The notes: generated from the sequence alone by a model not told the origin. A stretch of 64,000 nt of DNA from an uncultured Acidobacteriota bacterium (GCA_963774855.1 CAVZGT010000014.1:508892-572891); one strand, 5' to 3'; counted from the first letter of the stretch, positions 8,468-63,699 are shown. Numbers and translations: made by a program.

Positions 8468-8538
8468 AACAGGAGTTCAGGAGGTCAGGAGATTCATTCT
8501 TGAAAACAGGAAAACTCCTGATCTCCTGATCTCCTGTT
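8468..8538. repeat. word-repeat hairpin (ATCAGGAG / CTCCTGAT family)
   Basis: Left arm is AACAGGAGTTCAGGAGGTCAGGAGAT and right arm is AACTCCTGATCTCCTGATCTCCTGTT. Arms are 26 nt with 3 mismatches and a 19-nt loop. Period 8 nt. Confidence 0.8.
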
Positions 8539-17984: not shown

Positions 17985-18095
17985 TAGTCACGAATCACTA
18001 ATCGCGAATCCTTGGATCATCGAATCGGTCGCGACAAGTCCTGCAGTGCGCGATGCAAGGATTCGACGATTCAGGATTAGTGATGAGTGATTGAG
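17985..18095. repeat. word-repeat hairpin (AATCAC/AATCC family)
   Basis: The left arm CTAGTCACGAATCACTAATCGCGAATCCTTG faces CAAGGATTCGACGATTCAGGATTAGTGATGAGTGATTGAG. Imperfect, with a ~40-nt central region. Confidence 0.6.
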
Positions 18096-23075: not shown

Positions 23076-23127
23076 GCTGGCCTTCAGGCCAGCCCCAACG
23101 GCGGTTCAGCCCAACGGCCTTCAGGCC
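23076..23127. repeat. GC-stem / TTCA-loop hairpins
   Basis: GCTGGCC-TTCA-GGCCAGC at 23076-23093, and GGCC-TTCA-GGCC again at 23116-23127, immediately after the methyltransferase stop. Confidence 0.6.
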
Positions 23128-23208
23128 AGCCTTGGCGGACCCGCCTACCCGAACGCGGGATAATGAAGGCGACGGAGGCAGCGGAGCGTTCAGCCAACGT
23201 CTTTTCAA

Positions 23209-23349
23209 CACGGAGGAACGGAGGAACGGAGGAACGGAGGAACGAATCCTTGATGTTTCTTTATTGAAGAGCAATTCTCCGTTGCTCCGTTTCTCCGTTG
23301 CTCCGTGTTAGATACCTCCGCTTTCTCCGTACCCTCCGGTATCTCGGAG
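23209..23349. repeat. word-repeat hairpin (CGGAGGAA / CTCCGTT family)
   Basis: (CGGAGGAA)x4 at 23211-23242 faces TTCTCCGTTGCTCCGTTTCTCCGTTGCTCCGTG at 23276-23308, with further CTCCG words to 23349. Lies between convergent genes. Confidence 0.75.
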
Positions 23350-23372
23350 TCGCGGCTGCCTGAAGGTCGGCA

Positions 23373-24338
23373 CTACGCGACAGAACGTCCCAGGCACAGA
23401 TCGAGCACGCGCGATGCCCGGGCGCCGCTCTCGCCTGTCGATTCGCATCGGCCGCGGCCGTGCAGCTCGTCGACGATCGTCTGGATGAGCGGTTGATGGA
23501 CGTGGGGAGGGTTCCGGATCGGATACGCGACCTCCCCCTCCGCTGTCGAGACCACCGTGTCGGCCTCGTGAAAGAGCGGGGTGCGCAGTTCACCCAGGGA
23601 GCCGGTGAACACCATGCCGTCTCGCTTGCTGCCGGCATTGAAGTTCCAGATGCCCGTGCCCACGACGTCACCGGCGATCCTGAAGGACGCCGCGATCGCG
23701 TCCTCGACCTCGTACGTCCCGCCGGTGTTGACCGGGAAGCCGGCGGCCTCGACGATCTCCCCCACGAGATAGTCGAGCAGGTCGATGCCGTGCGAGCCCA
23801 CGTCGAGGAACAAGCCTCCGCCCGCGATCGCCGGGTCGAACCGCCAGGCGGCCGCCTGTTCCGGCGTGGCCAGCCGATCCATGACTTCCACTCGAACCGA
23901 CGTCACGCGACCGATCGCCCCGCCGGCGAGAAGATCGCGAACGGCGACGTACCGAGGGAGCGCGCGGCGGTAATACGCAACCCAGAGCGGCGCAGCGGCG
24001 GTGCGGAACGCCTCCACCATCCGGAGGCACTCCCCGTGGTCCATCGCCATCGGCTTTTCCACGAGACAGGGCTTGCCGGCCGCGGCCACGCGAAGCGACA
24101 GGTCGCAGTGCGTGGAGGGAGGCGTGGCCACGTACACCGCGTCCACATCGGCGTCGGCAATCAGATCGCCGGCGCTCGCGTGCACGCGCGGGACGTTGTG
24201 GCGGCGGGCGAAGTCCTCGGCCTTCGCGCGATCCCGCCGCATGACCGCCACGAGCGCGGATCCCGGCGTCTTCTGAAATCCGGGACCGCTCTTCACTTCC
24301 GTGACGTCCCCGCACCCGATGATGCCCCAGCGAATCAT
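23373..24338 (-). CDS. Gfo/Idh/MocA family oxidoreductase
   Basis: N-terminal Rossmann motif MIRWGIIGCGDVTEVKSGPGF and EKPMAMDHGECLRMVEAF. Intact, 321 aa. Confidence 0.9.
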   Translation of the reverse strand: MIRWGIIGCGDVTEVKSGPGFQKTPGSALVAVMRRDRAKAEDFARRHNVPRVHASAGDLIADADVDAVYVATPPSTHCDLSLRVAAAGKPCLVEKPMAMDHGECLRMVEAFRTAAAPLWVAYYRRALPRYVAVRDLLAGGAIGRVTSVRVEVMDRLATPEQAAAWRFDPAIAGGGLFLDVGSHGIDLLDYLVGEIVEAAGFPVNTGGTYEVEDAIAASFRIAGDVVGTGIWNFNAGSKRDGMVFTGSLGELRTPLFHEADTVVSTAEGEVAYPIRNPPHVHQPLIQTIVDELHGRGRCESTGESGARASRVLDLCLGRSVA

Positions 24339-24345
24339 GCGGAAT

Positions 24346-24422
24346 CTCCAGCTTCCAGCTTCCAGCTTCCCGCTCCCCGCTTCCGAATCCCGAGTCCCGA
24401 ATCCCGAGTCCCGAGTCCCGAG
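24346..24422. repeat. two abutting heptamer arrays (CTTCCAG then GAATCCC/GAGTCCC)
   Basis: CTCCAG CTTCCAG CTTCCAG CTTCCCG CTCCCCG CTTCC, followed by GAATCCC GAGTCCC GAATCCC GAGTCCC GAGTCCC GAG. Lies in a divergent spacer. Confidence 0.8.
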
Positions 24423-26228: not shown

Positions 26229-26334
26229 AACAGGAGGTCAGAAGGTCAGGAGGACATCCTTAACCCAAAGATCAAAACCTCCTGATCTCCTGATCTCCTG
26301 ATCTCCTGTTTAGGTTTTAGTCTCCTGATCTCTC
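26229..26334. repeat. word-repeat hairpin (ATCAGGAG / CTCCTGAT family)
   Basis: AACAGGAGGTCAGAAGGTCAGGAGGA faces CCTCCTGA TCTCCTGA TCTCCTGA TCTCCTGT (26276-26310). An extra TCTCCTGATCTCTC unit runs into the tldD stop. Confidence 0.8.
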
Positions 26335-30266: not shown

Positions 30267-30956
30267 ATGATCACGCGCGCGATCGCGATACTGACGCTTG
30301 CGTTGCTGGCGGCCCCGGCGGCGCGGGCGCAGGAGCAGAAGCTCACGACGTACTACCTCGTCGTGCTGCTCAAGGGGAAGGCCTGGACCGCGCAGGAATC
30401 GCCGGAGCGGACCAAGCTCCAGGAACAGCACATCGCGCACCTCACGAAGCTCGGCGACGAGGGCGCCGGGCTGGCGGCGGGCCCGTTCGGCGACGGCGGC
30501 GACATCCGCGGACTCCTCATCGTCGCCGCGAAGTCAGAACAGCACGCGCGCGAGCTCGAGGCCGCCGATCCGGCGGTGAAGGCCGGGCGGCTGGCGATCG
30601 ACGTGCTGCCGTTCATGGCCCCCGAAGGATGGTTCCACAAACCCGCGACCCCCTTCGCGATGGAGACGGTGTACTTCGTGTTCCTGAACGGCGGCCCCAA
30701 CCGCGCGCCGGATCCGGAGAGCGCGAAGCGCCTGCAGTCCGAGCACCTCGCCTACATGGACGCCCAGCACAAAGCCGGCCGCCTGATTCTCGCCGGCCCG
30801 TTCGTCGGCGGCGGGAGCCGCGCCGGCCTCGTGGTGTATCGCGCCGCCTCCGCCGACGAGGCGCGAGGTTGGGCGGCCGCCGACCCGATGGTGAAATTCG
30901 GCCGCCTCGAGGCCGAGATCCACGAGTGGTATCTCGCGAAGGGCGTGCTCAAATAA
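30267..30956 (+). CDS. tandem YciI-like (YCII) domain protein with signal peptide
   Basis: MITRAIAILTLALLAAPAARAQ, then two YCII units (HIAHLTKLGDEGAGLAAGPFGDGGDIRGLLIV...DPAVKAGRL and HLAYMDAQHKAGRLILAGPFVGGGSRAGLVVY...DPMVKFGRL). Confidence 0.75.
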   Translation: MITRAIAILTLALLAAPAARAQEQKLTTYYLVVLLKGKAWTAQESPERTKLQEQHIAHLTKLGDEGAGLAAGPFGDGGDIRGLLIVAAKSEQHARELEAADPAVKAGRLAIDVLPFMAPEGWFHKPATPFAMETVYFVFLNGGPNRAPDPESAKRLQSEHLAYMDAQHKAGRLILAGPFVGGGSRAGLVVYRAASADEARGWAAADPMVKFGRLEAEIHEWYLAKGVLK

Positions 30957-31024
30957 TCCCTAATCGCTAATCCCTGATCCCGCATCCCGCATCCCGAATC
31001 CCGAATCCCGAGTCCCGAGTCCCG
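30955..31024. repeat. perfectly phased 10 x 7-nt array (AATCCCT to AGTCCCG gradient)
   Basis: The units are AATCCCT AATCGCT AATCCCT GATCCCG CATCCCG CATCCCG AATCCCG AATCCCG AGTCCCG AGTCCCG. The array starts inside the TAA stop of the YciI-like gene. Confidence 0.9.
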
Positions 31025-37164: not shown

Positions 37165-37267
37165 TGGAACCCTTAGAACCTGGCGGAACCCTGACGAACC
37201 AAATCACCCGCGAACTGTAGAACCCAGCGGAACCCTGTGGAACCCCGCGGAACCCCGTGGAACCCTT
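37165..37267. repeat. unidirectional GGAACCC word array filling the clpS-clpA spacer
   Basis: The words run CTGGAACCC TTAGAACC TGGCGGAACCC TGACGAACC ... TGTAGAACCC AGCGGAACCC TGTGGAACCCC GCGGAACCCC GTGGAACCC. There is no complementary arm. Confidence 0.8.
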
Positions 37268-37680: not shown

Positions 37681-38684
37681 ATGTCCACACTTGCGTCAGG
37701 GATCGACTACGTCGACCTCAACTTTCTTGGAAATGCCGAGATCATCGCGACCGCCGTCCTGCAGGGCGCGGGCGGGGTGGCGCTCATCGACCCGGGGCCG
37801 TCGACCACGCTCGACACCTTGCGAGCCGCGCTCCGGCGCAAGGGAATCGGCATCGCCGACGTCCGCCAGCTGCTCCTGACCCACATCCATCTCGACCACG
37901 CGGGCGTCACCGGGACGCTCGTGCGTGAGAACCCGGCGATCGAGGTGTTCGTGCACGAGCGCGGCGCGCCGCACATGGTCGATCCCTCGAAGCTGCTCGC
38001 GAGCGCCGGCCGGCTCTATGGCCAGGACATGGAGCCCTTCTGGGGAGAGTTCCTGGCCGTCCCGGCCGATCGGGTGCGCGTGCTCAAAGGCGAGGAGCGC
38101 ATCATGGCCGGCGGCCGCGGAGCTGCAGGTGACGTATACGCCCGGCCACGCCTCCCATCACGTCAGCTACTTCGACCCGTCGAGCCGCATCGCGTTCGTC
38201 GGCGACACGGCCGGGATCCGCCGCGGCGCGAGTCAGCTACATTATGCCGCCCACGCCGCCGCCGGACATCGACCTCGAGGCGTGGCGGACGAGCGCCGAT
38301 CGAATCCTCGCCTGGGATCCGGACACGCTGTTCCTCACGCACTTTGGCCCCTTCCACGGCGCCCGCCTGCACTTCCAGGAGCTGATGGATCGGCTCGACG
38401 CGTGGAGCCGGAGCGCACGGCGGCTGCTCGGCGACCAGACACTGGACGACTCCCAACGCGAGCGCGCGTTCGTCGAGGAGGCGCTGCTCGAGCTCAGACG
38501 CAAGATCGGGGAACAGAACGCGGAGCGATACAACCGCGCCGGCCGGCTCGACTATTCGTGGCAGGGACTCGCACGGTCCTGGAAGAGACGTGCGAATCCC
38601 AATCCTAATCCACTAATCCCTAACCCTAATCCTCAATCCGTGAATCGAGGGCTCGGATTCAGCGATTCAAGGATTCGTGATTAG
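37681..38684 (+). CDS. MBL-fold metallo-hydrolase, two frame breaks; C-terminal tail read from a repeat
   Basis: LLLTHIHLDHAGVTG (HxHxDH), TYTPGHASHHVSY and PPTPPPDIDLEAW. Frame changes at about 38118 and 38220. The last ~30 codons (NPNPNPLIPNPNPQSV...) are the AATCC repeat. Confidence 0.75.
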
Positions 38685-38692
38685 GGATTCTC
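38592..38692. repeat. word-repeat hairpin (AATCC / GGATT family)
   Basis: GCGAATCCCAATCCTAATCCACTAATCCCTAACCCTAATCCTCAATCCGTGAATCGAGG faces CTCGGATTCAGCGATTCAAGGATTCGTGATTAGGGATTCTC. Confidence 0.7.
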
Positions 38693-39688: not shown

Positions 39689-40177
39689 GTGAACCTACGG
39701 CGCTTTGTCTTCGGTTCGCATCCCCGGCGCACGCTGGTGCGCGTGCTGGTCCTCGGGGCGTTGAGCTTCGCGATGTTCCGGTGGGTCCTGATGCCAATCC
39801 GCGCCGAAGGCATCAGCATGATGCCCACGTACCGCTCCGGATCGCTCAACCTCGTCAATCGCCTGGCCTTCGCGTCCAGCAAGCCGTCCCGCGGAGACGT
39901 CGTGGCGATCCGGCTCGCGGGACCCCACGTGCTGTACGTCAAACGCATCGTGGCGCTGCCGGGTGAGCGATTCTCGATGTCCCAGGGCCAGGCCTACGTC
40001 AACGGCGCTCCGCTCAGCGAGCCGTACGTGCAGGACCGCCGGCCGTGGGACGTGCCGGAAGTGACCTTGACACCACGCGAGTACTACGTCATCGGCGACA
40101 ACCGCGGAATGAGCGCCAGCGACCATGATTTCGGCCGCGTCGATGTCTCGCGCATCGTCGGCAAGGTCGTCTTTTGA
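39689..40177 (+). CDS. lepB: signal peptidase I
   Basis: GISMMPTY (catalytic Ser box), [17 protein letters not shown] (Lys box) and [19 protein letters not shown] start. Confidence 0.85.
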
Positions 40178-40659
40178 CGAGACGCCGCGGGCTGCAGGTC
40201 GGAGGCGTCGTCGCGCTGGCCGCCGTCGCGTTGTTCGTGTGGAGCCGCTGGGGGTCGGACGACGAGCGCGTCATTCGCGAGCGGATTGAAGCGCTGCGCA
40301 GCGAGGTGAACCGCTCCGCCGACGGCCTCGCCGCCATCTCCCGCGCGAACAATATCGGAAGCTACTTCACCGAGGACGTCGTGGTCGATCTCGGGCAAGG
40401 CGCCACGCCCATCCGGGGCCGCATGACGCTCATGGGGATGGCCGAGCGGCTTCAGCCGCGAACCGCCGCATTCCGCATGGAGTTCGACGACGTCGGCGTC
40501 GAGATGACGTCCGGCGCCGCAACCGCCGACGTCACGCTGACCGCGAGCTTCATACGGGGAAGCCAGACCGGAGAGGAATCGCGCGACGCCCGCGAGTTCG
40601 CGCTGGGCTTCACCAAGGCCGGCGGGACCTGGCGCATCGCGCACGTGACGGCGATAGAT
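40174..40659 (+). CDS. membrane-anchored SnoaL/NTF2-like (DUF4440-like) domain; no stop codon, reads through a repeat into the peroxiredoxin
   Basis: TTGA overlap with lepB. TM segment [14 protein letters not shown], then ...[17 protein letters not shown], a typical NTF2-fold end. The ORF stays open to 41187. Confidence 0.5.
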
Positions 40660-40660
40660 G

Positions 40661-40715
40661 TGTCTGAGATAGTCTCGGGTCTCGGGTCTTCGGTCTTGTC
40701 TTTGGTCTTTGGTGG
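40661..40715. repeat. GGTCTC/GGTCTT word array (complement of the GAGACC family), in frame
   Basis: The words are GTCTGAG ATAGTCTC GGGTCTC GGGTCTT CGGTCTT GTCTTT GGTCTTT GGTGG. They translate as [18 protein letters not shown]. Confidence 0.75.
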
Positions 40716-40722
40716 TGGACGA

Positions 40723-41187
40723 ATGTCTATACGCGTCGGCGACGAGGCCCCTGATTTCGAGTTGCGCAGCCATCGCGGCGGCACGGTCAAGCTGTCGGAT
40801 TTTCGCGGCCGGCAGAACGTGGTCATCGCGTTCCACCCGCTGGCGTTCACGCCCGTGTGCGAGGCCCAGATGTGCGGGTACGAATCCAATCTCGAGCGGT
40901 TCGCACGCGAGGGGGCGGCCGTCCTCGGCATCAGCATCGACGCGCAGCCGGCCAAGGCGGCCTGGGCGAAAGCCATCGGGCCGATCTCGTACGACCTGCT
41001 GAGCGACTTCCATCCTCACGGTGAGGTCGCGCAGCAATACGGCGTCTTCAGGCCAAAAGAAGGCTTCTCCGAGCGCGCGATCTTCGTCGTCGACAAGCAG
41101 GGGCGAATCGCCTGGTCGAAGGTCTACCAGATCCCCGAGCAGCCGAAGAACGACGAGGTGTTCGAGGCGCTCTCGAACCTGAGCTAG
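40723..41187 (+). CDS. peroxiredoxin (AhpE-like AhpC/TSA family)
   Basis: [51 protein letters not shown]... (peroxidatic Cys in FTPVC) and [15 protein letters not shown]. Confidence 0.85.
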
Positions 41188-46149: not shown

Positions 46150-46290
46150 AGGAATTGCTTCTCTGAGTGCTGTGAGTGGTTCGGGTGGCGGACAGCTCGT
46201 GCCGCCCGACTCAAGTATAGCCAGAATTTACGGCGGCCTTCCGGAAGAGGATCACATTGCCCGGCGAGTGGCGGGTTTTCGGCGGCGAAC

Positions 46291-46413
46291 GCCCCTACCG
46301 CGAGCGCAGCGAGCGGCCTTTACCGGCGAGCGTAAGCGAGCCGGCCCCTACCGAGGCGCGCAGCGCCGAGGCCCTTACCGCGTCAGCGAAGTCAGCGCGG
46401 CCCTACCGCAGCG
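46291..46413. repeat. 4.5 tandem copies of a 25-29 nt unit derived from the coxD 3' end
   Basis: Units start GCCC(C/T)TACCG and contain (N)AGCG...AGCG: 46291, 46316, 46344, 46371 and 46400. The last unit contains the coxD stop codon. Confidence 0.65.
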
Positions 46414-50979: not shown

Positions 50980-51016
50980 GGTCTTTTTTGTCCTGTCCCG
51001 TGGGCCCTTAGGTAGC

Positions 51017-51073
51017 GCCGGCCTTCAGGCCGGCATTTCGAGGCCGTTGCCGTCTGCCGGCCTGAAGGCCGGC
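51017..51073. repeat. pair of GC-stem tetraloop hairpins (GCCGGCC-TTCA-GGCCGGC and its complement)
   Basis: 51017-51034 is GCCGGCCTTCAGGCCGGC and 51056-51073 is GCCGGCCTGAAGGCCGGC. Confidence 0.7.
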
Positions 51074-51074
51074 T

Positions 51075-51660
51075 CTACTTGTGTCCACCGCCATGCGGTT
51101 CGGGCGAAGCGGGCGGAGCAGGCGCCGGCGGCGTCCCGCTCGCGGGCGCCGGCACTCCGATCGTTCGTCCACCCGACGACTCGCCCATCGCGGGAGCGTG
51201 CGTGCCCGTCCGCGGATCGAGAACAGGGGCGGCCCGGACCGGCAGCCCGCGCTGCACGATCAGCTTTTTCGCCTCGGCGATCGGTATGTGCGCGACGCCC
51301 GTGGCCTGATTGACCCACCCGTAACCCTCGAAGCTCCTTCGCCTCCGTCATCCGGAATCTTCGCGAGGGCCTCGGGTTCGTTGGTCTGCAGGTGCGGCCC
51401 CGCCGGAAGCAGCTCGGGGCACTTCGTCGAGGTCGGCAAATGGGCACGTCGGCCGGGCGAGCGGCGACAGCTGCGGGTCGTTCGTGGCCGCCTGGTGGGT
51501 GAGGACGCGGAACAGCCCCCACATCAGCAGGAACGCAGTCGGCCACCACCGCCACTATCCCCACGCCGAACCGGAGAATCGTCCGGACGTCGACATCGGA
51601 CTGCTCGTGCGCAACGTCCTCGTTGTCCAGCTCCGGCGAGGAATGATCAGTGGACGTCAT
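51075..51660 (-). CDS. conserved single-TM membrane protein at the ActG position of the ACIII cluster, three or more frame breaks
   Basis: MTSTDHSSPELDNEDVAHEQSDVDVRTILRFGVGIVAVVA|TAFLLMWGLFRVLTHQAATNDPQLSPL...PELLPAGPHLQTNEPEALAKI|RMTEAKEL|EGYGWVNQATGVAHIPIAEAKKLIVQRGLPV. The start overlaps the actF end by 14 nt. Confidence 0.5.
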
Positions 51661-58538: not shown

Positions 58539-58639
58539 CAGCTACCAGCTACCAGCTACCAGCTACCAGCTTCCCGCAATCCGCTCCCGGCTTTTCGAGC
58601 TCCATGCTGGAAGCTGGAAGCTGGAAGCCGGAAGCTACC
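58539..58639. repeat. word-repeat hairpin (CAGCTAC/CAGCTTC versus GGAAGCT) filling the actA-actB spacer
   Basis: (CAGCTAC)x4 plus CAGCTTC faces GCTGGAAGCTGGAAGCTGGAAGCCGGAAGCTACC, with a regular A-A mismatch every 7 nt. The right arm includes the actA stop. Confidence 0.85.
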
Positions 58640-59429: not shown

Positions 59430-59445
59430 TGTGAAACTATTCACA
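59430..59445. promoter_or_regulatory. perfect Crp/Fnr-family palindrome TGTGA-N6-TCACA
   Basis: TGTGAAACTATTCACA lies in an AT-rich patch of the divergent spacer, about 136 nt upstream of actA and about 85 nt upstream of the ABC-2 ATPase gene. Confidence 0.45.
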
Positions 59446-59469: not shown

Positions 59470-59519
59470 GCTAAAGTTCTAAAGTTCTGAAAGTTCGAAT
59501 GTTCTACAGTCTCTAATCG
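59470..59519. repeat. AAAGTTCT word array (complement of AGAACTTT)
   Basis: The sequence is GCTAAAGTTCTAAAGTTCTGAAAGTTCGAATGTTCTACAGTCTCTAATCG. Confidence 0.5.
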
Positions 59520-59529
59520 AATTGGAGCG

Positions 59530-60419
59530 ATGACCGAGCCATCGTCCTGCGCGGCGTCACCAAGCGGTTCGACGGGACCGTGGCCGTGAACGATCTCTCG
59601 CTCACCGTCCCCACGGGCTCGATCTACGGCTTCATCGGCCCGAACGGCTCCGGCAAGACGACGACGCTCAGGATGATCATGCACATCCTGCTGCCCGACG
59701 AAGGGCAGATCGAGGTCCTCGGGTCGAGCGACACCGCCGCGGCGCGCGATCGCGTGAGCTACCTTCCCGAGGAGCGCGGGCTCTACAAGAAGATGACGAT
59801 TCGCCGTCTGCTGCGGTACTACGCCCGCCTCAAAGGCGGATCGCGCAGCCGCATCGACGCGGCGATCGACGAGTGGATGGCGCGGATGGAGCTGCCGGGG
59901 CTGCTCGATCGGCAGATCGAGACGCTCTCGAAGGGGATGTCGCAGAAGGTCCAGTTCATCGCCGCGGTCGTCTCGGACCCGGCGCTGCTGATCCTGGACG
60001 AGCCGTTCTCCGGCCTCGACCCCGTCAACGCCCAGGTGCTGAAAGACGCGGTGCTCGAAATGCGGCGCCGCGGCGCCACGGTCGTCTTCAGCACGCACGA
60101 CATGGCGACCGCCGAGCGCATGTGCGATCGCATCTTCATGATCTTCCGCGGCCGGAAAGTGCTCGACGGGTCGCTCGAGAGCATCCAGGACCAGTACGGC
60201 GCCGACACCGTCCGGATCCGCACGTCGGCCGGCGCCGCCGCGCTCGCCGGCATGCCGGACGTGGAATCGGTCAACGACTTCGGCCAGCTCCAGGAAGTGC
60301 GTCTCAAGGGGGATCCGCAGGCGTTTCTCTCGCGCCTCGCCGCGCGCACGGCGATCTATCACTTCGAGGTCACGCGCCCGTCGCTGCAGGACATCTTCGT
60401 GCGGATTGCCAAGCCGTAG
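59530..60419 (+). CDS. ABC transporter ATP-binding protein (ABC-2/NatA-like), frame break at codon 4
   Basis: GGAG then ATG 59530 (MTE), with 1 nt missing at about 59540. Then IVLRGVTKRFDGTVAVNDLSLTVPTGSIYGFIGPNGSGKTTT, LSKGMSQK and LLILDEPFSGLD. Confidence 0.85.
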
Positions 60420-60597
60420 GAGACAGGAGTCAGGAGACAGAATTCAGGAGACAGGAGGCAGGGGTGGCAAACCGTACCTAGCGTCCGGCTTCAGCCGGAC
60501 CAAGGCGGTTGGAAGATTGCACGAGACAGGAGACCGAAGACCGGAGACCGAAGACCTGAGACCGAGACCGAAGACCTGAGACCTGAGACCTGAGACC
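60419..60597. repeat. purine-rich GAGACAGG/GAGACC word arrays flanking a TTCA-loop hairpin
   Basis: 60419-60462 is GGAGACAGGAGTCAGGAGACAGAATTCAGGAGACAGGAGGCAGG. 60483-60500 is GTCCGGC-TTCA-GCCGGAC. 60523-60597 is GAGACAGGAGACCGAAGACCGGAGACCGAAGACCTGAGACCGAGACCGAAGACCTGAGACCTGAGACCTGAGACC. Confidence 0.75.
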
Positions 60598-60617: not shown

Positions 60618-61928
60618 ATGCGCAAGATCCTGATCGTCGCCCAGTCGGAATTCGCCACGCTCGTCCGCAGCAAGGCCTTCATGGTCAGCATCGTGCTGAT
60701 GCCGGTGATCATGGTGCTGTCGGTGGTGCTCATGCGCGCGACGAAGAACGCCACCGACGGCAAGGACCGGACGTTCGCGTTCGTGGACTACACCGGCGTC
60801 CTCGGCGAGCAGCTCGTCGCCGTGGCCCAGGTCCTGAACGCGGGCTCCGGCGATCTCGCCGATCCACAGGCGCTGCGGACCACGCCGCGCTTCATCCCGG
60901 TCGAAGTCAAGCCGGACGGCCGGCCGCCCGAAGCCCTGCGCCTCGAGCTCTCCGATCGCGTCCGCCGCCAGGAGCTGTTCGCGTTCGTCGAGCTGCCCGA
61001 GAACCTCCTGGATCCCGCCGGCAAGGCGCAGATCCGTTACTACTCCGACCATCCGTCCTACAACGCGCTGTCGATGTGGCTGCGGGTGACCGTGAACGGG
61101 CTCGTCCTGAACGAGCGGTTCCGGCGGGCCTCGATCGATCGCGCGCTCGTGGCGCGGCTCACGCGGCAGGCGCCGGTCGAGAACCTCGGCCTGTTCGAGC
61201 GCGACGCGGCAGGGACGGTGAAGCAGGCCGAGGAAGTCGACCAGGTCCGCGCCCAGGGCGTGCCGCTGGCGATGCTCGTCCTGATGTACATCACCGTGAT
61301 GTCGAGCGCCCCGCAGCTCCTCAACAGCGTCATCGAGGAGAAGATGAGCCGCATCAGCGAGGTCCTGATGGGCGCGATCACGCCGTTCCAGCTGATGATG
61401 GGGAAGCTCATCGGCAGCGTCGGCGTCTCGGTGCTGCTGGCCGCCATCTACATCGCCGGCGGACTCGTCGTCGCGCAGTACTGGGGCGGCTACGCGAGCG
61501 CCGTGACGCCGGGCGCGCTCGCCTGGTTCACGTTGTTCCTCGTGATGGCCGGGCTGATCTTCGGCTCGATCTTCATCGCGATCGGCGCAGCGTGCAACGA
61601 CCTCAAGGACACCCAGAGCATGGCCACCCCGGCGATGGTGCTCGTCATGCTGCCGATGTTCACGTGGATGTCCGTGCTGCGCGCGCCGGACGGCATGACC
61701 GCGGCAGTGCTGTCGATCATCCCGACCGCGGCGCCGTTTCTGATGATGCTGCGCATCTCGCTGCGGCCCGGCCCGCCGGCGTGGCAGATCGCGCTCTCGA
61801 TCGCGCTCATGGCCGGCACCGTCGTCCTCGCCATCTGGGCCGCGGGGAAGGTTTTCCGGACGGGACTGCTGATGCAGGGGAAGTCGGCCACGATGGCGGA
61901 GATGTTGCGGTGGGTGAAGGCCAAATAA
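60618..61928 (+). CDS. ABC-2 type transporter permease (NatB-like, large extracytoplasmic loop)
   Basis: N-terminal TM segment, a ~170-aa loop, then 5 TM segments with EEKMSRISEVLMGAITPFQLMMGKLIG. Intact, 436 aa. Confidence 0.8.
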   Translation: MRKILIVAQSEFATLVRSKAFMVSIVLMPVIMVLSVVLMRATKNATDGKDRTFAFVDYTGVLGEQLVAVAQVLNAGSGDLADPQALRTTPRFIPVEVKPDGRPPEALRLELSDRVRRQELFAFVELPENLLDPAGKAQIRYYSDHPSYNALSMWLRVTVNGLVLNERFRRASIDRALVARLTRQAPVENLGLFERDAAGTVKQAEEVDQVRAQGVPLAMLVLMYITVMSSAPQLLNSVIEEKMSRISEVLMGAITPFQLMMGKLIGSVGVSVLLAAIYIAGGLVVAQYWGGYASAVTPGALAWFTLFLVMAGLIFGSIFIAIGAACNDLKDTQSMATPAMVLVMLPMFTWMSVLRAPDGMTAAVLSIIPTAAPFLMMLRISLRPGPPAWQIALSIALMAGTVVLAIWAAGKVFRTGLLMQGKSATMAEMLRWVKAK

Positions 61929-62118
61929 GGGGTTCTACAGGGTTCCGCTGGGTTCTACAGGGTTCCGCAGGGTTCTGTTCCACGGGGTTCGGTTCCACGG
62001 GGTTCTGCACCTCGAACCTCGACGAACCTTGAACCTGGAACCTTGCGGAACCTAGTGGAACCCCGCCGAACAGAACCGAGCGGAACCCTGTAGAACCCCG
62101 TGGAACCTTGAGGAACCT
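61929..62118. repeat. ~190-nt word-repeat hairpin (GGGTTCY arm versus GGAACCY arm)
   Basis: The left half carries GGGGTTCTACAGGGTTCCGCTGGGTTCTACAGGGTTCCGCAGGGTTCTGTTCCACGGGGTTCGGTTCCACGGGGTTCTG. The right half carries ...GAACCTGGAACCTTGCGGAACCTAGTGGAACCCCGCCGAACAGAACCGAGCGGAACCCTGTAGAACCCCGTGGAACCTTGAGGAACC. Confidence 0.85.
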
Positions 62119-62126
62119 TTTCCGGG

Positions 62127-62669
62127 ATGGACACGTTGTCGCATGGCGCGTGGGGCTACGTGGCGCTCCATCGTATTCCGGGGCTGGCGTGGTGGGGTGT
62201 GCTGGCCGGCGCCGCACCCGATCTGCTGTGGTTCGTGCCCAGCAAGATCGAGCAGGTTTCCGAAAAAGGATGGACCGCGCTCACGATCGGTCGCGAGCCG
62301 GGAATCTGGCGCGCCGACGGACCGCCGCTGCCCCCGGAGCTGGTCGAGGCGTACTTCCGCTACTACGTCTGGACGCACAGCCTCGTCATGCTCGCGATCG
62401 TCACCGCCGTCGTGCTCATGACTCGATGGCGGCGGCTGGCGTGGCTCGCCGCGCCGTACGCGCTGCACATCCTCATGGACATGCCGACCCACGAGCGCTA
62501 CCAGACCCAGCCGCTCTATCCGCTGTCGTCGTGGAGCGTTCGCGGCGTGTCGTGGGCCGATCCCCGCATTTTCTGGCCGCACGCGGTGATGCTGGTGGTC
62601 GCACTGGGCTTCGTGTGGTGGAGGCGGAGAACCCCGCGGAACCGAACCTGGCGAACCCCGCGGAACTGA
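62127..62669 (+). CDS. membrane-bound metal-dependent hydrolase (YdjM/DUF457-like); C-terminal tail read from a repeat
   Basis: MDTLSHGAWGY...APDLLWF...YYVWTHSLVMLAIV...HILMDMPTH. The last 14 codons (RRTPRNRTWRTPRN) are GGAACCC words. Confidence 0.7.
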   Translation: MDTLSHGAWGYVALHRIPGLAWWGVLAGAAPDLLWFVPSKIEQVSEKGWTALTIGREPGIWRADGPPLPPELVEAYFRYYVWTHSLVMLAIVTAVVLMTRWRRLAWLAAPYALHILMDMPTHERYQTQPLYPLSSWSVRGVSWADPRIFWPHAVMLVVALGFVWWRRRTPRNRTWRTPRN

Positions 62670-62716
62670 ACCCTGCGGAACCCAGTGGAACCCCGCGGAA
62701 CCCCGTTGAACCCTCA
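62627..62716. repeat. unidirectional GGAACCC word array
   Basis: The sequence is GAGAACCCCGCGGAACCGAACCTGGCGAACCCCGCGGAACTGAACCCTGCGGAACCCAGTGGAACCCCGCGGAACCCCGTTGAACCCTC. It lies between convergent gene ends. Confidence 0.8.
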
Positions 62717-62718
62717 AT

Positions 62719-63699
62719 TCACAGCCCCAGCAACCGCACCGCGTTCTCCCCGTAGATCTTCCTCTTCACGTCGTCGCCCACGTCGAGCGCCGCGATGGTG
62801 TCGATCATCAGCGGGATGCTGCCGATCTGGTGGGGATAGTCGCTGCCTGCCAGGATGCGATCCGCGCCGGCGAAGCTCACCGCGAACTTCACCGCATCCG
62901 GGTTGAAGTTGACCGTGTCGTAATACAGCGTCTTCAGGTACTCGCTCGGCGGACGGTTGATGTGCCGGCGGCAATCGGCGAACGCCCGGTAGCCCCGATC
63001 CAGCCGCTCCGCCAGGTACGGGATCGCGCCGCCCATGTGCGTCAGCACCCAGCGGATCCCGGGGTGGCGTTCGATCACGCCGCTGAAGACCAGCTTCGAC
63101 GCCGCCAGCGTCGTGTCCATGAGGAAGCCGACGAGCGGCATCAGCCAGTACTCCAGCATGGCCTCGACGCCCAGCGGGTCGGTCGGATGGATGTAAATCA
63201 CCGCACCGAGCTCGTCGGCCTTCTTCCAGAGCGGCGCGAACCGCGCGTCGGCGAGCGCCACGTGGTTGACGTTGCTGAAGACCATCGCGCCCGGGAGGCC
63301 GAGCTCCTGCATCGCGCGCTGCAGCTCCCGGACCGAGGCGGCGGGGTCGTTGAGCGGCAGCGTCGCGAGCGCGGCGAACCGTCCGCTGCCGTCCCGGCAC
63401 ACGCGTGCGAACGCGTCGTTGATCTGGGTCGCCAGGCGCGCCGCAACGGCGGGCGCCTCGACGTGGACGCCCGGCGTCGTGAACGATAGGACCTGCGTCT
63501 CGACGTGGTGCTCGTCGAGCACCACCCGCCGGTACTGGATGTCGCGATGTCCGGGCACGAGAACGTTGTAGTCCCCCGGGTAGTGCACGCACGGGTTCCC
63601 ATCGGTGTCGTAGGTGACCTTGACGGCGGACGTCGAGCTCATCAGCGCCTCGACGTAGACCGGCGGATAGTAGTGGTTGTGAAAATCAACGATACGCAT
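62719..63699 (-). CDS. amidohydrolase family protein (amidohydrolase_2 / ACMSD-like)
   Basis: MRIVDFHNHYYPP (HxH metal site), IYIHPTDP, VLTHMGGAIPY and LAGSDYPH. Intact, 326 aa. Confidence 0.85.
   Translation of the reverse strand: MRIVDFHNHYYPPVYVEALMSSTSAVKVTYDTDGNPCVHYPGDYNVLVPGHRDIQYRRVVLDEHHVETQVLSFTTPGVHVEAPAVAARLATQINDAFARVCRDGSGRFAALATLPLNDPAASVRELQRAMQELGLPGAMVFSNVNHVALADARFAPLWKKADELGAVIYIHPTDPLGVEAMLEYWLMPLVGFLMDTTLAASKLVFSGVIERHPGIRWVLTHMGGAIPYLAERLDRGYRAFADCRRHINRPPSEYLKTLYYDTVNFNPDAVKFAVSFAGADRILAGSDYPHQIGSIPLMIDTIAALDVGDDVKRKIYGENAVRLLGL

Follow-up and report, generated by a model that had tools for sequence, protein, structure and literature searches.

Between an ABC-2 type transporter permease gene and a ydjM-like gene of an uncultured soil Acidobacteriota bacterium, a run of GGGTTC words is followed by a run of GGAACC words, and the two runs can pair into a single hairpin. 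The locus raises the question of what such an element is, how it came to lie behind a gene, and whether it acts on the transcripts that pass through it. Our analysis covers a 64-kb window (the whole stretch of DNA under study, 64,000 nt, with positions counted from its first letter), contigs of close relatives, and metagenome loci. We find that two hypervariable arrays of short tandem repeats, inverted with respect to each other, make up the element; their unit is GGGTTCCNNN, with a 10-nt period, and the pair belongs to a known class, the inverted pairs of intergenic G-rich short tandem repeats. Taken alone, the hairpin at 61929-62118 is an extreme but ordinary member of that class; what is new is the 10-nt unit, the phylum, the many coexisting word families, a quantified strand rule, and the association with inversion and loss of ydjM.

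The host is a Vicinamibacterales bacterium (Acidobacteriota). The best permease matches among GTDB species representatives are Vicinamibacterales MAGs, at 67%, 58% and 53% identity, and those MAGs also bear heptamer arrays.

Anatomy of the locus

The features of the locus, together with the array of the same family in the clpS-clpA spacer, are as follows.

60618-61928, plus strand: ABC-2 type transporter permease gene, an open reading frame (ORF) whose TAA at 61926-61928 abuts the array
61929-62007, plus strand: left arm (L), about 8 units of GGGTTC(C/T)NNN by word positions
62008-62036, no strand: apical region of the hairpin, degenerate GAACCT units, delimited by minimum-free-energy (MFE) versus centroid folds
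62014-62118, plus strand: right arm (R1), 11 GAACC units and 1 GAACA unit
62118-62126, plus strand: post-stem segment TTTTCCGGG, a short T-run plus the 8-9-nt spacer before the ydjM ATG
62127-62669, plus strand: gene for a YdjM-like inner-membrane protein (Pfam PF04307, 32.1 bits against a cut-off of 29)
62627-62716, plus strand: distal array (R2), about 9 GGAACC units, overlapping the ydjM 3' end
62719-63699, minus strand: amidohydrolase (Amidohydro_2) gene (PF04909, E 5.7e-41), convergent with the permease and ydjM genes
37167-37265, minus strand: clpS-clpA spacer array of the GGAACC family, with GGGTTCC from 1 nt past the clpS stop (TAA)

Homologues of the permease contain PF12698/PF01061 and carry the JGI name ABC-2 permease. 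An earlier note on this DNA had the array starting one base past the permease stop, and the coordinates agree, with TAA at 61926-61928 and the array from 61929. The left arm has a 10-nt period with some 5- and 15-nt sub-units and is G-rich on the permease sense strand. Within 61929-62007 we count 6 GGGTTC[CT], 7 GGGTTC, 8 GGTTC or 9 GTTC words, and within 62014-62118 we count 6 exact GGAACC, 11 GAACC or 12 GAAC words, mostly at 10-nt spacing; the earlier figures of about 8 and about 10 words are fair when GGTTC/GAACC is taken as the core. Tandem Repeats Finder (TRF) recovered periods of 10, 15 and 20 in both arms. The final right-arm word ends at 62117, and the ydjM ATG stands at 62127.

The distal array R2 encodes the last ~13 codons of ydjM (TPRNRTWRTPRN). 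Read on the minus strand, it is a GGGTTC array immediately after the amidohydrolase TGA (TCA at 62719-62721 on the plus strand). R2 is a direct repeat of R1, the two flanking ydjM, and of all inverted partners it matches the left arm best (89% over 62 nt). The clpS-clpA array at 37167-37265, beside genes whose ClpS and ClpA identities were confirmed by Pfam, has neither a partner arm nor excess secondary structure (z +1.1). The same word thus recurs without an adjacent partner at 62627-62716 and 37167-37265, the latter in the clpS-clpA spacer, as had been noticed earlier. A CRISPR array was rejected as an identity for the repeats, given a 10-nt period and 3 variable nt per unit against 23-50-nt repeats with unique spacers of similar size; protein-coding and telomere-like readings were dropped on period and context.

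Folding of the element

As plus-strand RNA, the element folds with an MFE of -129.9 kcal/mol (z -11.85), a value that 0 of 200 shuffles equalled (shuffles -76.1 +/- 4.5). Minus-strand RNA reaches -125.3 kcal/mol (z -10.7) and single-stranded DNA -66.8 kcal/mol (z -10.2). The locus is also the longest inverted repeat within the 64-kb window, with 60-nt arms that are 85% complementary; on this measure the ~190-nt hairpin is indeed the largest element of its kind here, as first described. The MFE stem comprises 78 pairs (41 GC, 27 AU and 10 GU) with the outermost pair at 61927-62121, and the 10 G-U wobbles arise in the plus-strand RNA because many R1 units read GAACCT.

The earlier note had suggested MFE and ensemble folding as a check and had foreseen many alternative registers. 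Folding gave the 78-pair stem and divided that expectation. Pairing in the apical region (62008-62036) is weak and variable across the ensemble, but the outer stem keeps one register; the ambiguity lies mostly at the apex, because the centroid equals the MFE structure in the outer stem. The apical sequence itself is identical in strain L081 by alignment, and a metagenome scan for the exact sequence TTCTGCACCTCGAACCTCGACGAACC found none.

The arms had also been described as complementary word by word rather than base by base. When the order of right-arm units was permuted, the fold retained -121.1 +/- 6.6 kcal/mol against -129.5 for the native order (z about -1.3). Chimeras of the window's left arm with foreign partners reached -132.1 kcal/mol with the L081 right arm, -128.8 with the clpS array, and -144.8 with the R2 array at 62627-62716. 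Since permuted and chimeric forms fold about as well as the native element, complementarity stems from the shared 10-nt unit and not from local co-adaptation of the arms. The word-by-word description therefore stands, with the qualification that the native register does retain 85% complementarity across 60 nt. We had expected the arms to co-evolve by compensatory change, and the permutation and chimera tests rejected this. A stem of this kind is thus generic to any pair of arrays of the 10-nt unit in opposite orientation. Taken singly, arrays show no structure in excess of chance (z -0.1 to +1.1), and two-arm hairpins reach z -6 to -12.6.

A very low folding energy might also be the mark of one particular non-coding RNA with a defined structure (an sRNA, riboswitch or miRNA-like precursor, for example), and the element does give a sub-threshold match to Rfam MIR820 (50.4 bits, E 4.6e-07). 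That family is from plants, however, and the match lies far under its gathering score of 196, reflecting only a generic long hairpin; no Rfam family reached its gathering threshold anywhere in the window. The fold also survives permutation of its units, and strains turn over whole units. We find a dedicated RNA of this sort barely credible.

Graded states of the spacer in relatives

Contigs of closer relatives, drawn from permease matches in a large protein database, form a graded series at the permease 3' spacer. Their nucleotide identity to the window is ~96% for L081, 88-91% for L082, L083, L084 and L089, and 83-88% for L092. The states are as follows.

L092-L099 and L222: 15-nt spacer, array absent, ydjM on the minus strand
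L082: one GGGTTC array (~9 units), ydjM on the minus strand
L084-L091: 76-nt spacer with 1.3 left units and 5 GGAACC units, ydjM on the plus strand
L081 (ENA ERZ25039469): 195-nt two-arm hairpin (198 nt in the window), ydjM on the plus strand
L221 (JGI 3300067513; permease 93% identical): 205-nt two-arm hairpin, ydjM absent
L220 (permease 94% identical): ACGGAG/CTCCGT hairpin in place, ydjM absent
L083: two small ordinary hairpins, ydjM absent

The hairpins of L081 (-131.6 kcal/mol, z -11.6) and L221 (-136.1 kcal/mol, z -12.6) fold like that of the window. In L221 the permease and amidohydrolase genes converge, and the hairpin lies directly between their stop codons, its stem preceded by an A-rich AAATAA and followed by T5. 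We conclude that the two-arm arrangement is conserved within roughly species-to-genus distance and that it is one of several interchangeable states. Arrays and hairpins had been proposed as two states of one repeat type, and the same spacer does hold no array, one arm, 1.3 + 5 units, or two arms. The suggested comparison of this spacer among relatives recovered the two-arm structure in L081 and L221, so that it is now seen in two other assemblies at the orthologous spacer, in addition to 8 unrelated soil-metagenome loci; the refuting condition set in the earlier note, lack of conservation of the two arms in related genomes, did not hold.

These occurrences bear on whether the element could be an assembly artefact, in which a long-read assembly had expanded a repeat or gained a chimeric fold-back. 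Assemblies are prone to errors at long palindromes and tandem repeats, but the same architecture fills the same spacer in the independent assemblies L081 (195 nt) and L221 (205 nt), and analogous hairpins occur in many JGI contigs. An artefact is in our estimate extremely improbable; the two-arm arrangement is real, because it is found in three independent assemblies.

The arrays change quickly. Two indels, of 7 nt and 10 nt, and ~20 substitutions separate the hairpin of the window from that of L081, and both fold at about -130 kcal/mol. Among contigs with identical permeases, neighbouring arrays differ in copy number, including AAGACC at 3, 4 or 5 copies, CAGGAG at 3-8 copies, and AGACC arrays. 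These data show that units are added to the arrays and lost from them within very short times.

Word arrays across the window

TRF and k-mer clustering identified ~19 bins with arrays of period 7-10 in the 64 kb, against 0-1 in shuffles, and throughout this one window and the related loci the arrays sit in spacers between ORFs. They comprise ~8 word families: GGAACC, CAGGAG, ACGGAG, AATCCC / TCCCGAG, CAGCT(A/T)C, GAGACC, CTTTAGAAC, and others. GGAACC itself occurs 52 times in the window where 32.6 +/- 5.9 are expected, an excess confined to three loci (61929-62118, 62627-62716 and 37167-37265). Six other inverted pairs can form hairpins.

8470-8536: inverted pair, hairpin-capable
17988-18090: inverted pair, hairpin-capable
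23172-23338: inverted pair, hairpin-capable
26231-26310: inverted pair, hairpin-capable
38595-38690: inverted pair, hairpin-capable
58539-58636: inverted pair, hairpin-capable

Gradients of unit variants link word families in the arrays at 24347-24422 and 30955-31024, and such gradients are a signature of growth by mutation plus amplification. The hairpin at 58539-58636 belongs to the CAGCTAC family; several strains carry it within an operon junction, and L084, L089 and L221 lack it precisely. ACGGAG hairpins at non-orthologous loci (23160-23350 in the window versus those of L081 and L220) consist of an outer arm, a spacer, an inner arm and an AT-rich loop, and they also have a similar tail, CCTCCGCTnTCTCCGTnCCCTCCG.

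Two side observations count against the slippage origin proposed below. A limited vocabulary of words recurs across loci and genera, which is not what purely random slippage predicts. Some hairpin families at non-orthologous loci have non-repeat architecture in common, which hints at dispersal.

Polarity and the stop-codon rule

A metagenome scan with the pattern GGAACC-N4-GGAACC-N4-GGAACC returned >120 matches of mixed origin. Among the two-arm cases, on high-GC contigs, the GGTTC arm precedes the GAACC arm in 8/9, and with the 61929-62118 locus included the polarity holds in 9/10 (binomial p 0.011). A coding-like ORF ends <=12 nt upstream of 21/77 arrays read as GGTTC and of 2/70 read as GAACC (Fisher odds ratio 12.8, p 2.6e-5). 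The same sense-strand rule at stop codons holds for three genes of the window, those for the permease, ClpS and the amidohydrolase. Fixed hairpin polarity appears to follow because arrays obey this strand rule at stop codons: where two convergent genes each carry a 3' array, GGTTC-then-GAACC polarity therefore results, and L221 is that case.

A fixed arm polarity would also fit a non-autonomous foldback or MITE-type mobile element, in which inverted repeats of short tandem units are moved by a transposase acting in trans. Word families do recur at unrelated loci and in different genera, the non-orthologous ACGGAG hairpins have a bipartite layout and the tail in common, the 58539-58636 hairpin is precisely missing from L084, L089 and L221, and strains at 96% identity have different cassettes in the spacers that flank the permease operon. 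Several observations oppose mobility, however. No target-site duplications or defined ends were seen, including in the filled/empty pair at 58539-58636; lengths vary continuously, with one-armed and graded intermediates at the same site; simple deletions from an L081-like state suffice to give both the L220 and the L221 state; and no transposase was identified among the part of the proteins in the 64-kb window that the search covered. The stop-codon and sense-strand rule would account for polarity more simply than a mobile element does, and we judge mobility to be improbable.

Another reading puts the function in each single G-rich array on the sense strand, which would act as a putative G-quadruplex of RNA or DNA (G4; for example (GGGUUCCNNN)4) or as an array of protein-binding sites in 3' UTRs, the hairpin being incidental to the meeting of two such arrays. 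Beyond the strong sense-strand and stop-codon bias, a (G3-4 N6-7)n motif lies on the sense strand of the left arm, R2 and the clpS array, the left arm carrying (G3N7)x4, and R1, which no longer stands behind a stop codon, is made up largely of AGGTTC units, in which the G-tracts are broken. In vitro, the GGGNATC repeats of Xanthomonas and Nostoc fold into G4, and they have the same positional bias (PMC4692102). Against this reading, the CAGGAG, ACGGAG, CAGCTAC, GAGACC and CTTTAGAA families behave in the same way without G-tracts, and 7-nt loops are at the limit for a stable G4; we consider it rather improbable.

Proposed origin and the rearrangement of ydjM

We propose that slippage drives the arrays of the element and that their inverted pairing arose where two 3' arrays met head-on, and we hold this to be probable. 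Arrays would grow by replication slippage or unequal recombination, and the 3' arrays of convergent genes would create a hairpin on meeting head-on, as in L221. With ydjM placed between the direct copies R1 and R2, an old hairpin of convergent genes would now stand upstream of ydjM.

The neighbouring gene varies with the arrays. It lies on the plus strand in the window, L081 and L084-L091, on the minus strand in L082, L092-L099 and L222, and is absent from L083, L220 and L221. The YdjM protein is 86-90% identical across both orientations, with a variable C-terminal tail, and ydjM is clearly under purifying selection. A sigma-70 scan of the spacer found no ydjM promoter. Recombination between R1 and R2 would delete ydjM and yield an L221-like state, and recombination between the left arm and R2 would invert it; we infer that the arrays may serve as substrates for such local deletions and inversions, which would fit a gene found forward, inverted and missing. 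Derivation of the minus-strand ydjM state of L082 by a single inversion between L and R2 was rejected, as the right-hand array of L082 is of the GAGACC family.

Possible role in the transcript

The 78-pair stem followed by UUUU in the permease transcript might act as a leaky terminator or as a structure protecting the 3' end, a role that we regard as possible, if on balance doubtful. It would be leaky rather than tight because ydjM downstream is conserved. Its position at gene 3' ends and the convergent setting in L221 support a role in termination or at RNA ends. T-runs follow the right arm in the orthologous hairpins of the window, L081 and L221 and in 2/7 other complete hairpins, and beyond the stem the run is kept as TTT in L081, TTTTT in L221 and TTT in L084; among independent two-arm hairpins, TTT follows the right arm in only 3/8. 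A consensus terminator scan made no call at 62118, where the tail TTTTCCGG has 4 T only. That the conserved ydjM starts 9 nt past the stem, with no promoter found for it in the spacer, counts against strong termination, as does the presence of the 58539-58636 hairpin within an operon junction. A canonical intrinsic terminator was rejected as an identity for the element, the 4-T tail falling short of the criterion of at least 5/8 U and the 78-pair stem being far beyond the usual size.

Termination could, alternatively, be what the element is selected for. The hairpin would then be an exchangeable bidirectional intrinsic-terminator cassette that insulates convergent transcription, with repeats as only the route by which it is built. 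The L221 hairpin, exactly between convergent stops with AAATAA before and T5 after, favours this reading, and T-runs past the right arm occur in the window, L081, L221, L084, L131 and L183. CAGGAG hairpins likewise have A-rich heads and T-rich tails (TAACAGGAG...CTCCTGTTTA), and the replacement of the hairpin at the same junction by an ACGGAG/CTCCGT hairpin in L220 and by small plain hairpins in L083 looks like a functional one. However, partnerless single arrays, which have no structure, are commoner than pairs; hairpins lie upstream of conserved genes (ydjM) and inside an operon junction; about half of the independent hairpins have no T-run; arm co-adaptation is nil beyond the shared vocabulary; and the terminator scan was negative. 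We regard a selected cassette as unlikely. Broader in reach is the idea that the word arrays of Vicinamibacterales might form a lineage-wide, strand-specific 3'-end or insulator system that replaces canonical terminators, every array being set behind a stop codon in one sense orientation and those of convergent genes pairing as giant hairpins, and that they would also be recombination substrates by which small genes such as ydjM are flipped, deleted or shuffled between strains; we think this distinctly unlikely.

Comparison with known repeat systems

As an inverted pair of 3' arrays, the element finds its closest precedent in the GGGAATC / GGGGA(C/T)T arrays of Xanthomonas and Nostoc, with their convergent inverted pairs (PMC4692102). 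Xanthomonas genomes hold ~185 arrays of the GGGAATC heptamer each, of which 70-75 form inverted pairs that are always convergent (Rehm 2015, PMC4692102). These arrays lie preferentially <=50 bp past stop codons on the sense strand and form G4 in vitro; the arrays of X. campestris and X. axonopodis differ in length but agree in type, single or paired, and the function of the arrays is reported as unknown (PMC4692102). More widely, many bacteria have an excess of heptamer simple sequence repeats (SSRs), and long SSRs occur more often in genomes that are large and rich in GC (relayed by PMC4692102).

The arrays described here, in the 64-kb window and related loci, resemble those of Xanthomonas in being numerous, non-coding, and built of short G-rich units placed head to tail. 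Unit number differs between close relatives at the same locus, one convergent polarity prevails among pairs (9/10 here) with stem-loop potential, and the G-rich sense strand, with its G4-capable motif, lies near the stop codon (21/77 versus 2/70 here). They differ in having a decamer (GGGTTCC plus 3 variable nt) of unrelated sequence in place of a heptamer, in their phylum, Acidobacteriota, and in the ~8 word families within one genome, most of them without G-tracts; the arms are far longer (~80-100 nt each), and the neighbouring gene is inverted or lost. A literature search for repeat arrays in Acidobacteria or Vicinamibacter, and for the words GGGTTCC/GGAACCC, found no prior description.

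The match between the stop-codon rule and the Xanthomonas report suggests that a common mechanism shapes arrays of this type in high-GC bacteria that are unrelated. Vicinamibacterales rank with the most abundant bacteria of soil and are, to our knowledge, almost uncharacterised genetically. If about one-third of their spacers bear a word array, the arrays would contribute heavily to variation between strains and to breaks in soil-metagenome assemblies, and they would be ready-made markers for strain typing (VNTR) and candidate determinants of transcript ends. The locus is a concrete example of arrays on both sides of a gene that near relatives carry forward, carry inverted or have lost, and the lineage would be a good one for testing the function of the whole array class.

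Other systems offer partial likenesses. The STRR of cyanobacteria are lineage-specific, abundant intergenic tandem repeats of ~7 nt with variable copy number. In Beggiatoaceae and cyanobacteria, most TAACTGA direct repeats are found just a few nucleotides before a start codon, and a single indirect (inverted) repeat was reported (MacGregor 2015, PMC4679880). Both belong to the same broad class as the arrays here. The arrays here likewise use lineage-specific intergenic words in variable copy number, but unlike TAACTGA they are tied to stop codons and often form inverted pairs. Foldback (FB) elements of Drosophila have long inverted arms of short tandem units with variable arm length, and are mobile and kilobase-sized. 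Our element has the same long inverted arms of tandem short units, whereas FB elements are eukaryotic, mobile and measured in kilobases. Bidirectional intrinsic terminators are similar in that a GC-rich stem stands at the 3' ends of genes, preceded by A-rich and followed by T-rich sequence, as in L221; the stem here is ~10 times longer and built of repeats, the T-run is short or absent in about half of the cases, and the hairpin is also found upstream of conserved co-directional genes.

REP, BIME and REPIN sequences are intergenic and hairpin-forming, are often arranged as inverted doublets, and have been proposed to affect termination or mRNA stability (PMC3333891, PMC3733652). The REP unit is a palindrome of 20-40 nt with a GTAG or CGTC head and a link to a RAYT transposase (Ton-Hoang 2012, PMC3333891; Di Nocera 2013, PMC3733652). 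The word arrays are likewise intergenic, highly repeated, able to form hairpins and often inverted doublets, but their units are non-palindromic 10-nt direct repeats, and a hairpin arises only from two arrays. GTAG-type REP-like palindromes are nonetheless present in the same window, at 23076-23093, at 60483-60500, and as a doublet at 51012-51078; these palindromes and the word arrays coexist there as two repeat systems.

Arrays and hairpins at gene junctions

Several junctions in the region of the ABC-2 permease and ydjM-like genes carry arrays or palindromes (window coordinates):

58539-58636, minus strand: CAGCTAC/GCTGGAA two-arm hairpin within an operon junction
59430-59445: perfect CRP/FNR-type palindrome TGTGAAACTATTCACA (TGTGA-N6-TCACA)
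59471-59516: short CTAAAGTT array 5' of the ABC ATPase gene
60418-60462: Shine-Dalgarno-like CAGGAG(A/G) heptamer array
60523-60597: GAGACC/AAGACC array
62627-62669: end of the ydjM-like gene, lying within a GGAACC array

The heptamer array begins at the ATPase stop codon; its word and location are conserved in every relative sharing 83-96% nucleotide identity, and its copy number ranges from 3 to 8. The second array at this junction, GAGACC/AAGACC, lies immediately 5' of the permease start and occurs in some strains; the relatives' contigs L081, L082, and L092 lack it. The CRP/FNR-type palindrome occupies the spacer that separates the divergent cytochrome c7 and ABC ATPase genes; the surrounding sequence ATAATGTGAAACTnTTCACAAAGTGTCAA is kept in all relatives fetched, and the adjoining repeat arrays vary. 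The CTAAAGTT array stands in place of a long GGTTCTT/AAGAACC two-arm hairpin found 5' of the ABC ATPase gene in L081-L089 and L221. Elsewhere, the strains are only ~4% divergent.

Presence of the CAGCTAC/GCTGGAA hairpin, which lies between the cytochrome c7 stop and the start of the next gene, differs among relatives. It is found in L081, L082, L092, and L220, with a variant unit in both arms of the L092 copy (CCAGTTT/AAACTGG), and is precisely missing from L084, L089, and L221, where the gene-to-gene gap is 4 nt. At the 3' end of the ydjM-like gene, the GGAACC array encodes the final ~13 codons (TPRNRTWRTPRN); in relatives, the C-terminal tails beyond the conserved VWWRR are unrelated.

Repeats at other loci

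Hairpins built from ACGGAG/CTCCGT occur at non-orthologous loci:

Window 23160-23350: ACGGAG/CTCCGT hairpin
L081 6040-6232: ACGGAG/CTCCGT hairpin
L220 4312-4510: ACGGAG/CTCCGT hairpin

All three share a bipartite layout of outer arm, spacer, inner arm, and AT-rich loop, and are also alike in their 3' tail, CCTCCGCTnTCTCCGTnCCCTCCG. This likeness between hairpins at non-orthologous loci suggests one of two origins: a defined element that was dispersed, or arrays that evolved in a strongly convergent way.

Two single arrays change unit gradually along their length, from TCCAGCT through TCCCGCT and CCGAATC to CCGAGTC (24347-24422) and from AATCCCT through CATCCCG and AATCCCG to AGTCCCG (30955-31024). 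These gradients connect word families seemingly distinct elsewhere. A GTCTCGG/GGTCTTT array (40672-40713) falls within a crudely called ORF (40174-41187). Two readings are possible: a coding array, or two genes called as one ORF.

Small GC-rich palindromes with a CTTCAG/CTGAAG center, some bearing a GTAG/CTAC tag, resemble elements of the REP/REPIN type, another repeat system separate from the word arrays:

23076-23093: palindrome
23116-23127: palindrome
23352-23375: palindrome
60483-60500: palindrome
51012-51035/51055-51078: palindromes forming an inverted doublet (51012-51078), 96% complementary

Of a different kind, and outside the 7-10-nt word arrays, is a repeat of ~37-nt period at 46264-46413, with ~4 copies comprising GGCCCCTACCG and GCGAGCG-type short palindromes.
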